Below the pieces are notes generated by a model, which was given only the letters and a program-made list of their open reading frames with translations, had not been told where the DNA came from and ran no database searches. Source: a virus (taxonomy: Duplodnaviria; Heunggongvirae; Uroviricota; Caudoviricetes). From it: DNA of 17,336 bases. Of the stretch, positions 13,746 through 16,332 are shown in pieces. The DNA lies in IMG/VR virus record IMGVR_UViG_2636416089_000002. One strand, 5' to 3'. Each line of letters begins with the position of its first letter. Within the stretch, counting starts at the first letter, position 1. The position numbers and the translations under genes were made by a program.

Positions 13746-14162
13746 ATGATCAATAAAGCTACAACTCTTGACTGTCTCGAAGAACTGAAAAACCTCGGCA
13801 GCCTCATTACACTAATAGCAAAAGCAACACCTGATGCTACGCTCTCTAGCGATATAGAGTCATGCGCAGGACTGGCATGGGATATGACAAATAGCATATC
13901 CAGAAAGCTATCGTCAGCAATGCTTTTACAGAACAAAAATTCTGCAATCAACAACCGTCTTCGCACCCAACGCGAAGCCTGCGGCTTAACAACCGCCGAA
14001 CTCGCCAGGCTGCTCGATCTCGATGAAGAAATTATCATCCAGTGGGAGAGCGGAGAGTGTGAACCAACTATCAGTATGCTTATCCCACTGGCAAATATTC
14101 TTGGCTGCGATCCGATGTGGCTGTTAACTGGTAAACCAACAGGTGGGGATACTTGCGCATGA
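13746..14162 (+). CDS. XRE-family HTH protein with unknown N-terminal domain (138 aa)
   Basis: C-terminal LRTQREACGLTTAELARLLDLDEEIIIQWESGECEPTISMLIPLANILGCDPMWLLTGK is a Cro/C1-type HTH; GAGG upstream of ATG. Confidence 0.6.
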   Translation: MINKATTLDCLEELKNLGSLITLIAKATPDATLSSDIESCAGLAWDMTNSISRKLSSAMLLQNKNSAINNRLRTQREACGLTTAELARLLDLDEEIIIQWESGECEPTISMLIPLANILGCDPMWLLTGKPTGGDTCA

Positions 14163-14401
14163 AAAACTGTGATGCTTACCATATTTGTCTCATTGGTGAA
14201 TTGCTTGATTTCATACAAAAAAGCACTGCGCACAATAATAAAAATATAACATATGGTGATCTGGTAATAATTTCAGAGGATATAAAGAGCATCGCTCTTA
14301 AATTCAAGAGCGACGCGAGTATTGATGACGCTATTTACGCTTATCTTGCGAAAATAATTGACGGATCCAAAATCCAGCCTCTGGATGAACCTCGTCAGTG
14401 A
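14159..14401 (+). CDS. Hypothetical 80-aa protein, coupled to the upstream HTH gene
   Basis: ATG overlaps the upstream stop (ATGA); AT-rich; no recognisable motif. Confidence 0.5.
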   Translation: MKNCDAYHICLIGELLDFIQKSTAHNNKNITYGDLVIISEDIKSIALKFKSDASIDDAIYAYLAKIIDGSKIQPLDEPRQ

Positions 14402-14558
14402 AAAACTCCTTTGATGAAGATGAGAACTGCTTCATTAACTTTACTTTATCTTCAGGTGAAACTACCTGACGAATTAATGCGGAGATAGCAACTTTGTGCC
14501 AAATTAATTCTTTTTTGAGTTCTGAAATCTCTTTTTCGAGTTGCTCTGCGTTAATCAT
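14331..14558 (-). CDS. Hypothetical 75-aa protein, convergent and overlapping the preceding gene by 71 bp
   Basis: GGAGGA 4 nt before ATG; predicted helical (LEKEISELKKELIW). The overlap makes it doubtful that both are real. Confidence 0.3.
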   Translation of the reverse strand: MINAEQLEKEISELKKELIWHKVAISALIRQVVSPEDKVKLMKQFSSSSKEFFTDEVHPEAGFWIRQLFSQDKRK

Positions 14559-14737
14559 TTATCCTCCATTGAGAGCTGAATTGAAAATGGGGACCAACAC
14601 GCGGCTACGTGTGGTCGTGCGCCGGACACGGATAAGCATCCGGTAACTGATTATCAATCATTGCGGAAACAGTCTCAATATGAAAACACTTCTGAGACTC
14701 GCTATATAGCAGGACATATAAGTCAGCTGAGGAAGCC

Positions 14738-15103
14738 ATGAAAAAGTTCGAAAACATAACTGTTCTCCATGTTGATGACTTTGATTATACAAACCCGGAA
14801 CTTCTCCCGGAGGTTGTAAAGGCAATAGATGTTGCCGATATAGTGATTAGAGAAAAGAGAATTGTCAAAAACAGGCTCGCATGCACTTCAGGAGCAATGA
14901 CAGAAACAACCTCACAGCAAGATAATTACGAAGGCATTTGTCTGGAGCCTGATTCATTTGCGGTAAATGTTTATCATTTATTGCATGCAACACAGGTATT
15001 ACATATGTCCAGTAATCACGAAACGAAAACACTCGGCAGCGAAATTCTGAGTTTTGCATGTGAGTATACAAAAGCTGCTGCCGAAAAAGAATTAGCGCAA
15101 TAA
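14738..15103 (+). CDS. Hypothetical 121-aa protein
   Basis: ORF with AGGA upstream, AT-rich, no recognisable motif. Confidence 0.5.
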   Translation: MKKFENITVLHVDDFDYTNPELLPEVVKAIDVADIVIREKRIVKNRLACTSGAMTETTSQQDNYEGICLEPDSFAVNVYHLLHATQVLHMSSNHETKTLGSEILSFACEYTKAAAEKELAQ

Positions 15104-15181
15104 CAACAAATATGCCCTGAACGTTTATTGCGGTTTTATCGCCGGGGATTGTTACAACCTTAATCCACAGGAGGCTTTATT

Positions 15182-15295
15182 GTGACTTTTATAAAGAATA
15201 TGGCATCACACAAGACCGCCTGCCTTATTGCACAATACGGTGAAAATTACATGCATATTGCCTGCTTATTTCTGCGTAAAGCATACGGGAGATAA
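15182..15295 (+). CDS. Candidate 37-codon small ORF or leader peptide
   Basis: GTG start with AGGAGG 7 nt upstream; its stop sits inside the RBS of the next gene. Below the ORF-track size cutoff. Confidence 0.25.
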   Translation: MTFIKNMASHKTACLIAQYGENYMHIACLFLRKAYGR

Positions 15296-15297
15296 TA

Positions 15298-15486
15298 ATG
15301 CATCAGAAAACAGCAGAACACGAACAAACCAGAATATTGCTGACCATCAAAAACGGGAAAGTAATATTCATTCGCCATGTTCATGACGATGAACTTGTAG
15401 GAACTCTTTCAACATTCCTGTTTATTGCAGAAAAGGCAGGATATGACGTTATTGCACCAGCAGATGAAGATGAAGATGAGGAATAA
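15298..15486 (+). CDS. Hypothetical 62-aa protein with acidic C-terminal tail
   Basis: GGGAG 6 nt before ATG; ends ADEDEDEE; 5-nt gap to the next gene. Confidence 0.5.
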   Translation: MHQKTAEHEQTRILLTIKNGKVIFIRHVHDDELVGTLSTFLFIAEKAGYDVIAPADEDEDEE

Positions 15487-15491
15487 ATATC

Positions 15492-16073
15492 ATGCAATAC
15501 GATGAATTCCAGGCTGAAGCAACAGCCAATGGTATACGAACTGGCAGTATGACGATTGATTATCACGACGCCATACGTCGTCTGGATGCCGGAGAATTCG
15601 ATACTCCTAATGTGCGAGGTTTACGTATCCTTCAGTGTCTGGCGCAAGCCGACGAAGCAGGATTACTGGGTAAACTTCCGGTTGAGATGAAGGTTGCTCA
15701 GTGGCGATGGTTGTATGTGACGACATTCATCAACGAAGAAGAAGACAAGAACGGCACAATTGATATCCTGAATGAACACGGAACAACTGAACACGCCGTG
15801 GTATATAACGGGATGTATGGGTTTATGACGATATATCCCGGCCCCATTCGATTTGCCTTACAACAGTATATTGAATGGAATTTAATTCAAAAATACGGCG
15901 AAGCTGAAGGAATGGGAAGAGCGCTGTTTCTTTATCAGAAAATGCTCACTACTTCCCCTGATAAAGGTTTCATTCTTTCAGATATGGGTCGAGAAGGGCT
16001 TGAAATCCTTCTGGATGAAATTATTAACGAAATGAATACTCATGGCATGCAATCCGAAACAGATATTAAGTAA
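15492..16073 (+). CDS. Hypothetical 193-aa protein
   Basis: GAGGAA upstream of ATG; AT-rich; no recognisable catalytic motif. Confidence 0.55.
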   Translation: MQYDEFQAEATANGIRTGSMTIDYHDAIRRLDAGEFDTPNVRGLRILQCLAQADEAGLLGKLPVEMKVAQWRWLYVTTFINEEEDKNGTIDILNEHGTTEHAVVYNGMYGFMTIYPGPIRFALQQYIEWNLIQKYGEAEGMGRALFLYQKMLTTSPDKGFILSDMGREGLEILLDEIINEMNTHGMQSETDIK

Positions 16074-16083
16074 AAGGGACCAC

Positions 16084-16332
16084 ATGACCGTTATCGAGTA
16101 TATCCAGGAAAATCCAGATTGCAGTAGAGAAGATATATCCCTCGCACTTGGAAGAAGCGCAACTTCTATCAGTAATGAATTATCACGGTTATTGTGGAAT
16201 GGGTTAATAGTACGAACTGGAGAAAAAAACAAAATGATTCTGTACTGCGTAAACAATCTGCCGTTTGGATACAGCAATCCCCTAAGTGTTATGTTCAACC
16301 AGTTACTTAAACAGGTAAGAAATGGCAACTGA
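16084..16332 (+). CDS. Hypothetical 82-aa protein, possibly winged-helix DNA-binding
   Basis: MTVIEYIQENPDCSREDISLALGRSATSISNELSRLLWNGLIVRTG; the ORF track begins at 16042 but ATG 16084 is the more plausible start. Confidence 0.45.
   Translation: MTVIEYIQENPDCSREDISLALGRSATSISNELSRLLWNGLIVRTGEKNKMILYCVNNLPFGYSNPLSVMFNQLLKQVRNGN

Follow-up and report, generated by a model that had tools for sequence, protein, structure and literature searches.

The stretch analysed here is the 17,336-nucleotide (nt) viral record IMGVR_UViG_2636416089_000002 (Caudoviricetes), referred to in full as the window. At 13746-16332 it carries a block of small genes downstream of a CI-type repressor, of which an initial annotation had described 14159-16332 as an AT-rich cluster of uncharacterised genes and a candidate accessory or defence system. 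To judge from its matches, the window is an Escherichia coli lambdoid prophage of the phiP27 / yecE-integrating lineage of Shiga toxin (Stx) phages. Positions 12900-17336 align over their full length with an E. coli chromosomal prophage at 99.1% identity. In that genome the gene order is a cro-like gene, a LexA-family repressor, a helix-turn-helix (HTH) protein, several hypothetical proteins, DUF4752, ead/Ea22-like genes, excisionase, and integrase. The end of that prophage adjoins a frameshifted DUF72 gene beside yecN; we take the disrupted gene to be yecE, from the name of phage PPyecE. Among phage records, the top match to 13640-16050 is phiP27 (AJ298298), at 85.6% nucleotide identity; numerous Stx1a-, Stx2a-, and Stx2d-converting phages come next, along with PPyecE. 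In phiP27 the counterparts of the block are genes L10, L09, L08, L07, and L06, deposited there as "hypothetical; unknown," and because of this match the plus strand of the window is the lambdoid "leftward" direction, from cI to xis and int. Both the order and the orientation of these early-left genes after a CI-type repressor are the same in the two elements. The immunity region, with the right operator (OR), the left operator (OL), and the early-left promoter (pL), and the plus-strand genes are laid out as follows, with lengths in amino acids (aa):

12665-12874, minus strand: cro-like gene, on the far side of OR from cI
12892-12905, 12924-12937, and 12948-12961, no strand: OR, three 14-bp operator-like palindromes between the cro-like gene and cI
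12986-13642, plus strand: CI-type repressor (HTH_3 and Peptidase_S24 in Pfam and PHROG; RefSeq "LexA family protein," 657 nt); the open frame begins at 12911
13663-13676, 13698-13711, and 13727-13740, no strand: OL, three operator-like palindromes directly after the cI stop
13686 (-35, TTGCCA), 17 nt, 13709-13714 (-10, TACCAT), plus strand: pL-like promoter, overlapping OL2
13746-14162, plus strand: L10, Xre/DicA-type HTH protein of 138 aa, first gene after pL (HTH_3, E 1.3e-9)
14738-15103, plus strand: L08, an open reading frame (ORF) of 121 aa (phrog_5451, phrog_4587), with a conserved unit formed by the C-terminal 66 to 68 aa from 14897
15182-15295, plus strand: microprotein of 37 aa ending in LRKAYGR, with a GTG start and AGGAGG 7 nt upstream
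15298-15486, plus strand: L07, 62 aa (phrog_340), three strands and a helix followed by a variable acidic tail
15492-16073, plus strand: L06, 193 aa (phrog_1515), an alpha/beta protein
16084-16332 (open frame from 16042), plus strand: winged-helix (MarR-like) protein of 82 aa (MarR_2, E 9.5e-5; phrog_1687 "MarR family," E 1.3e-24)

The immunity region has the layout of lambda. A divergent repressor gene and cro-like gene are separated by several copies of one operator, and a second cluster of the same operator lies over a promoter beyond cI. The palindrome GATACNNNNGTATC, with up to two mismatches allowed, occurs 15 times in the window versus 4.9 ± 2.0 expected, a number reached by none of 200 shuffles; six of the 15 matches, including all three with one mismatch, make up the OR and OL triplets. 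As a control, the heteroimmune relative PhiR49_2 has a different half-site, ATCAAG/CTTGAT, at both corresponding places, together with a terminator after cI and a TTGACA-17-CATAAT promoter. Lambda likewise has divergent cI and cro, three operators in OR, three in OL, and an early-left operon running toward xis and int. CI is predicted to bind at OL and control pL. The first pL gene of lambda is N, whereas that of the window encodes an Xre-type HTH protein, and the recombination genes of lambda have no counterpart seen in the window. Lambda rexAB lies on the cI transcript, between cI and OL. The initial annotation had named rexAB among the known cargo of repressor-proximal regions. Since no gene lies between the cI stop at 13642 and OL1 at 13663, the window holds nothing there that could be cotranscribed with cI from the repressor maintenance promoter (PRM).

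Because OL and pL directly follow cI, the block would belong to an early-left operon repressed by CI. From L08 to the end of L06 there is no plus-strand promoter-like or terminator-like site between genes; the sole promoter-like match lies inside L08. With operators and a promoter-like site ahead of the block and no such sites between its genes, early transcription under CI repression is the most likely pattern. The block had been assigned to the strand expressed in a lysogen; the strand itself is right, but an operator triplet and a promoter-like site separate cI from the block.

The packed ORFs reported earlier (121, 37, 62, and 193 aa and a winged-helix protein) are all present at the coordinates given above. 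Relative to phiP27, substitutions fall mostly at third codon positions and the frames remain open: L10 has 1/2/9 changes at codon positions 1/2/3, and L07 and L06 also show a third-position excess. In the 37-aa ORF, the 30 substitutions are distributed 10/3/17 and there is no indel; because the changes are biased to third positions without an indel, we consider this ORF a real gene. Its RBS (ribosome-binding site) is as strong as had been noted, and its stop codon is only 2 nt from the ATG of L07. The homologues in phi467 and CharmingMan are 53 to 54% identical and retain the C-terminal LRKAYGR/K; identity across phiP27-type phages, phi467, and CharmingMan ranges from 53 to 100%. The microprotein has no match in PHROG, Pfam, NCBIfam, or PADLOC, and the Prokaryotic Genome Annotation Pipeline (PGAP) leaves it unannotated in the closest RefSeq genomes. 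The 121-aa L08 frame exists as described, but only its C-terminal portion is conserved across relatives; PGAP calls a 68-aa form, and homology to Stx1_14040 starts at 14918. A 21-nt repeat and a shared PHROG had suggested paralogy between this C-terminal domain and the N-terminal domain of L10; the idea was rejected (BLASTP E 0.68).

L10 covers positions 1-135 of the 167 in phrog_4739, its C terminus being shortened relative to the 167-aa family length. The gene contains mosaic joints at 13959 and 14133. The N-terminal domain of L10 varies in step with the immunity region, and only 13959-14132 is common to the window and PhiR49_2. Among relatives, L10 is 138, 167, 182, or 216 aa long, and the 216-aa form has two HTH domains.

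L07 and L06 are separated by 5 nt (15487-15491) in the window and overlap by 4 nt in a 70%-identical variant, so the tight coupling claimed for the pair is plain. The L07 model is of modest quality (predicted local distance difference test score of 68), with three strands and a helix; it matches no known structure, and no DNA-binding domain or known antitoxin domain was detected in the protein. The acidic tail (15463-15483) for which L07 had been singled out is present here, but its length varies among close relatives, from DEDEE up to DEDEEEDEDEDEE, and it is absent in 47%-identical homologues. L06 yields a confident structure model, for which we found no fold match and no ParE/RelE or other known toxin fold. 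All its relatives are annotated "hypothetical," and a profile search of 1.84 billion representatives returned 101 proteins, mostly standalone and 190 to 220 aa long. The last eight residues of L06, MQSETDIK (16050-16073), depart from the family end G-M/I-P..P..H, of which the terminal His is found in at least 90% of members. This odd end coincides with the stop of phiP27 homology at 16050 and with the overlap by the long MarR-like open frame from 16042. After L06, phiP27 has an SPFH-domain protein (annotated "putative serine protease"), whereas the window has the MarR-like gene. The suggestion of a possible winged-helix protein agrees with the PHROG match; the MarR_2 score (22.9 bits) is under the Pfam cutoff of 27. 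In Stx1_14040 the gene begins 11 nt past the L06 stop and carries a MarR family annotation, and the closest RefSeq genomes leave it unannotated.

The proteins are uncharacterised, as the initial annotation had it. L08, the microprotein, L07, and L06 have no curated Pfam or NCBIfam family; all block proteins except the microprotein match PHROG families, of unknown function (phrog_4739, phrog_5451/phrog_4587, phrog_340, phrog_1515, and phrog_20080) apart from the winged helix; and no paper on them was found in a literature search by accession number and topic. In PADLOC-DB 2.0, the only matches were generic HTH or winged-helix ones, for CI, L10, and the MarR-like protein, and a weak one to DUF2290 (E 0.0065) in a doubtful plus-strand ORF of 82 aa. 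That database gave nothing for L08, L07, L06, or a 75-aa protein encoded on the opposite strand (described below). The low GC content of the block is real, at 40.2% for 14159-16332 versus 52.1% for 1-11473, but it is not peculiar to the block: cI has 42.3%, OL together with L10 44.8%, and the rha/cro stretch 45.9%. Low GC thus extends over the entire immunity and early-left region. The earlier observation is therefore confirmed in its ORFs, spacing, and base composition, but not in a block-specific GC content, in expression in the lysogen, or in the ORF from which it was counted.

We next consider the distribution of the locus. The stretch of the microprotein, L07, and L06 was found in 340 of 5,426 complete E. 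coli genomes, of which 278 hold at least 80% of it; since identities span ~70 to 100%, it diverges along with the phages. In 62 of the 340, the match lacks the L07-L06 pair; among the matches listed, it stops immediately past the 37-aa ORF. At one such locus that was read, the next genes encode a phrog_1737 protein, a phrog_340 protein, a ParE_like protein (PF24732, E 1.8e-17), and a phrog_1886 protein; the phrog_340 protein is 39 to 47% identical to L07 over its full length. The 37-aa ORF is followed by a swap point: a recombination joint at which cassettes alternate, of the kind seen in accessory loci. In E. coli and Klebsiella prophages, the phrog_340 gene overlaps the downstream ParE_like gene by ~29 nt inside the early-left operon. 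The two may be a toxin-antitoxin pair, on which nothing was found in the literature searched.

A recurrent gene string emerges from these comparisons: microprotein, phrog_1737, phrog_340, ParE_like, phrog_1886, phrog_1515 (L06), antirepressor (ORF6N/Rha), phrog_37628, and further on xis and int. It stands after the repressor and an L10-like HTH gene, and different members are missing in prophages of E. coli, Klebsiella, Salmonella, and Pantoea stewartii. The same order is found in phi467 and CharmingMan, and the order of the block is kept in phiP27 and in Stx1 and Stx2 phages. By its gene order, the window is a reduced form of this string, microprotein-L07-L06. The L07-L06 junction looks like the product of losing the ParE_like and phrog_1886 genes in between, and it is old, since it is shared with phiP27. 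Because many enterobacterial temperate phages have the string at this same position, it is backbone-like early equipment. The comparison with related prophages that had been proposed as a test for a variable insertion thus gave a divided answer: the swap point and the 62 genomes without the pair speak for insertion, while the order conserved from phiP27 to Pantoea speaks against it. Features of backbone and of variable cargo are both present, and those of backbone predominate.

Distant L06 homologues occur in Pantoea, Erwinia, Leclercia, and Symbiopectobacterium, in elements resembling P4-type satellites. Such elements encode, in order, DUF4222, Ash, small helical proteins, L06, phrog_37628, and an alpha-type primase, and L07 is absent. 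As it is found in the early operons of prophages and of these satellite-like elements, L06 belongs to the early operons of temperate elements of several kinds. Its most constant companion is phrog_37628 and not L07; the two are neighbours in five or six loci, and one protein is a fusion of both. A 199-aa ORF of P4, considered as a possible L06 homologue, was dropped, since the P4 record has no such gene.

Taken together, 13746-16332 is probably the section nearest the promoter of a phiP27-type early-left operon whose genes would act at the start of lytic growth. In the lysogen, CI would occupy the operator triplet at 13663-13740 and thereby silence the promoter that overlaps it. Once the prophage is induced, or upon infection, L10, L08, the microprotein, L07, L06, and the winged-helix gene would be transcribed as one unit toward xis and int, and the string would most likely target the host or co-resident elements during early lytic growth. 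If this is so, the block is an ordinary, uncharacterised early operon of a common prophage lineage (one that includes Stx1, Stx2a, Stx2d, and Stx2e phages), not to be ranked as a defence-island candidate. It would also belong to a repressor-adjacent string that is widespread in enterobacterial prophages and has no assigned function, and L06, with its confident model and no known fold, would be of use in its own right.

One part of the block runs against the operon. Within L10 and the region downstream of it, the following features were identified:

14159-14401, plus strand: ORF of 80 aa, probably a noncoding shadow, antisense to the minus-strand 75-aa gene
14289-14316, minus strand: terminator-like hairpin just past the 75-aa stop, an inverted repeat with 12 pairs and a weak T tail
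14331-14558, minus strand: coiled-coil protein of 75 aa (phrog_20080), antisense to the pL operon; a RefSeq coding sequence with a GGAGGA RBS
14559-14645, minus strand: 5' leader of ~85 nt, folding into two hairpins, with the Shine-Dalgarno sequence covered by a CCUC/GAGG pairing
14650-14678, minus strand: promoter-like site for the 75-aa gene (TTGAGA, 17 nt, GATAAT; 10 of 12 matches)

The initial annotation had begun its block at 14159, with the 80-aa plus-strand ORF. Outside the overlap, this frame shows no third-position bias (5/6/7), and PGAP makes no call; it is open in 12 of 12 variants and matches phrog_23054. The opposite-strand gene at 14331-14558, with 2/3/13 changes at the codon positions, is better supported. 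The corresponding antisense gene of phiP27, L09, has a 1-nt frameshift in a T run, whereas the window copy is intact. The 75-aa protein is hydrophilic, as judged by eye; it has no Pfam family at or above the cutoff and no homology to SieB, its sole match being phrog_20080.

The 75-aa gene lies in a 518-bp insert (14133-14650), which, compared with most close relatives, replaces 158 nt and the last 30 codons of L10. At least 80% of a query covering most of the insert (14150-14660) is present in 54 complete E. coli genomes, and the 75-aa gene is missing from most close relatives. The leader is far more common. By itself (14558-14650) it matches ~970 of the 5,426 genomes, with up to four copies each, always unannotated, and the same leader and RBS occur in at least 120 IMG/VR contigs before at least eight kinds of small ORF, 57 to 101 aa long. 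As two of these eight kinds share phrog_8894, the leader precedes at least seven unrelated protein families; one kind has a weak GhoS match. All leader types except that of the window occupy one hotspot in Rac/Qin-like prophages, as their homologous flanks indicate. The neighbours of this hotspot in an O157:H7 strain are a DUF1391 gene and dicB, and there too it is antisense to the early-left operon. The -10 element of the promoter-like site ends ~5 nt before the conserved leader. The predicted fold has a minimum free energy of -33.4 kcal/mol (z -2.6). Covariation is weak, with a double change in two of 22 pairs, in one sequence each, and no Rfam family covers the leader or any other part of 13600-16400.

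This arrangement resembles lambda sieB, which also lies on the opposite strand inside the pL operon, although the 75-aa soluble coiled-coil protein is unrelated to SieB. A promoter of its own directed against the pL operon, as for sieB, is indicated for the 75-aa gene only, by the promoter-like site at 14678-14650 and the hairpin at 14316-14289. The analogy to exclusion cargo drawn in the initial annotation fits this cassette, which that annotation had not listed, but not the plus-strand genes. The layout would allow the 75-aa gene, in its sieB-like position, to be expressed in the lysogen, and it is the only gene in the block so arranged, as well as the only insert-like element there. Morons of lambdoid phages are units of promoter, gene, and terminator inserted between backbone genes; the insert resembles them in its promoter-like site, one small gene, and terminator-like hairpin and in being present in some close relatives but absent from most. 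It differs in that its 5' leader and RBS are common to at least six other unrelated families of small ORF at the Rac/Qin-like hotspot; we know of no description of a leader and RBS shared in this way among morons. The antisense site with its shared leader is a compact place in which to seek small proteins expressed in the lysogen.

Several observations weigh against the early-operon reading. No block protein has an assigned function; the swap point after the 37-aa ORF is typical of accessory loci; and we infer the transcription pattern, like any function, from sequence. No terminator-like site was found between cI and L10 in the window, which would permit some expression in the lysogen by read-through from PRM. 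The pairing of L07 homologues with a ParE-like gene makes a conflict or addiction role conceivable, and since phrog_340 is linked to ParE_like in this way, a toxin-antitoxin-like role could extend to L07 and L06. Acidic L07 would then restrain L06, as antitoxin to toxin or as neutraliser to effector, in a module for addiction, abortive infection, or interphage conflict. As in ParDE-type II systems, a small upstream gene is tightly coupled to its neighbour, and the L07 relatives in E. coli and Klebsiella prophages lie directly upstream of, and overlap, the ParE_like gene. The two proteins have diverged together from those of phiP27 (47% and 66% identity), and the variable, low-confidence acidic tail of L07 resembles the disordered tails of antitoxins. 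Unlike ParDE, however, the downstream gene encodes no known toxin fold, the upstream protein has no detected DNA-binding domain, and the pair has no promoter-like site of its own. In most other lineages, moreover, L06 follows phrog_1886 or unrelated small helical proteins without L07, and both its steady association with phrog_37628 and the apparent loss of intervening genes at the L07-L06 junction weigh against this reading. We consider this role unlikely. A broader and still tentative proposal, for which we see only a small chance, joins the two parts of the locus: the recurrent string would be an unrecognised conflict module, with L07 as neutraliser and the orphan-fold L06 as effector, and the antisense cassette would mark a sieB-position hotspot at which small proteins produced in the lysogen are exchanged behind a single structured leader that drives them, in about one-fifth of E. 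coli genomes. Both would be apparently undescribed.

The neighbourhood of L06 suggests another role, in which L07, L06, and their relatives would contribute, soon after induction, to derepressing co-resident prophages or helper phages or to interfering with them. L07 has weak matches to antirepressor PHROGs, in their C-terminal part (phrog_4792, E 4.8e-6; phrog_2379, E 4.9e-4), and in phi467, CharmingMan, and Pantoea stewartii an ORF6N/Rha/Ant gene comes immediately after the L06 homologue, a place taken by a 172-aa gene in Klebsiella. The early operon of the apparent P4-type satellites is also suggestive, as that of P4 itself carries the helper derepression gene epsilon. However, the L07 matches are confined to one small domain, L06 has no similarity to P4 epsilon or ORF151, the window has no antirepressor gene after L06, and neighbourhood alone does not establish function; an antirepressor-associated module is quite improbable. 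Least probable of all, in our estimate, is the proposal of the initial annotation that the lysogen expresses the block as cargo for defence or exclusion, like rexAB or sieB. The proximity of these AT-rich, uncharacterised genes to the repressor, the lack of a terminator-like site before L10, and the alternative cassettes after the 37-aa ORF are in its favour. Yet OL and pL intervene between cI and the block, the plus-strand genes carry no moron signals and no promoter-like or terminator-like site between them, and the PADLOC matches of these genes do not go beyond generic HTH ones. Gene order is conserved across genera, and L06 homologues sit in apparent satellite replication operons. Of the earlier interpretation, what stands is that the proteins are uncharacterised, that L07 and L06 are coupled, and that there is a swap point; the rexAB position and, for the plus-strand genes, the defence cargo are not supported.

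Outside the block, two further regions of the window contain RNA features. On the minus strand, 10464-10652 and 11120-11308 each contain a C4 antisense RNA and, after it, an isrK Hfq-binding RNA (both over the Rfam gathering scores). These copies lie within the stretch of two large minus-strand ORFs (9855-10706 and 10703-11365), just upstream of a Rha-family gene at 11474-12223, which suggests two antirepressor control modules of the P1/P7 immI kind. At 3045-3561, also on the minus strand, an STnc100 small RNA (139 bits) adjoins three tRNA genes.

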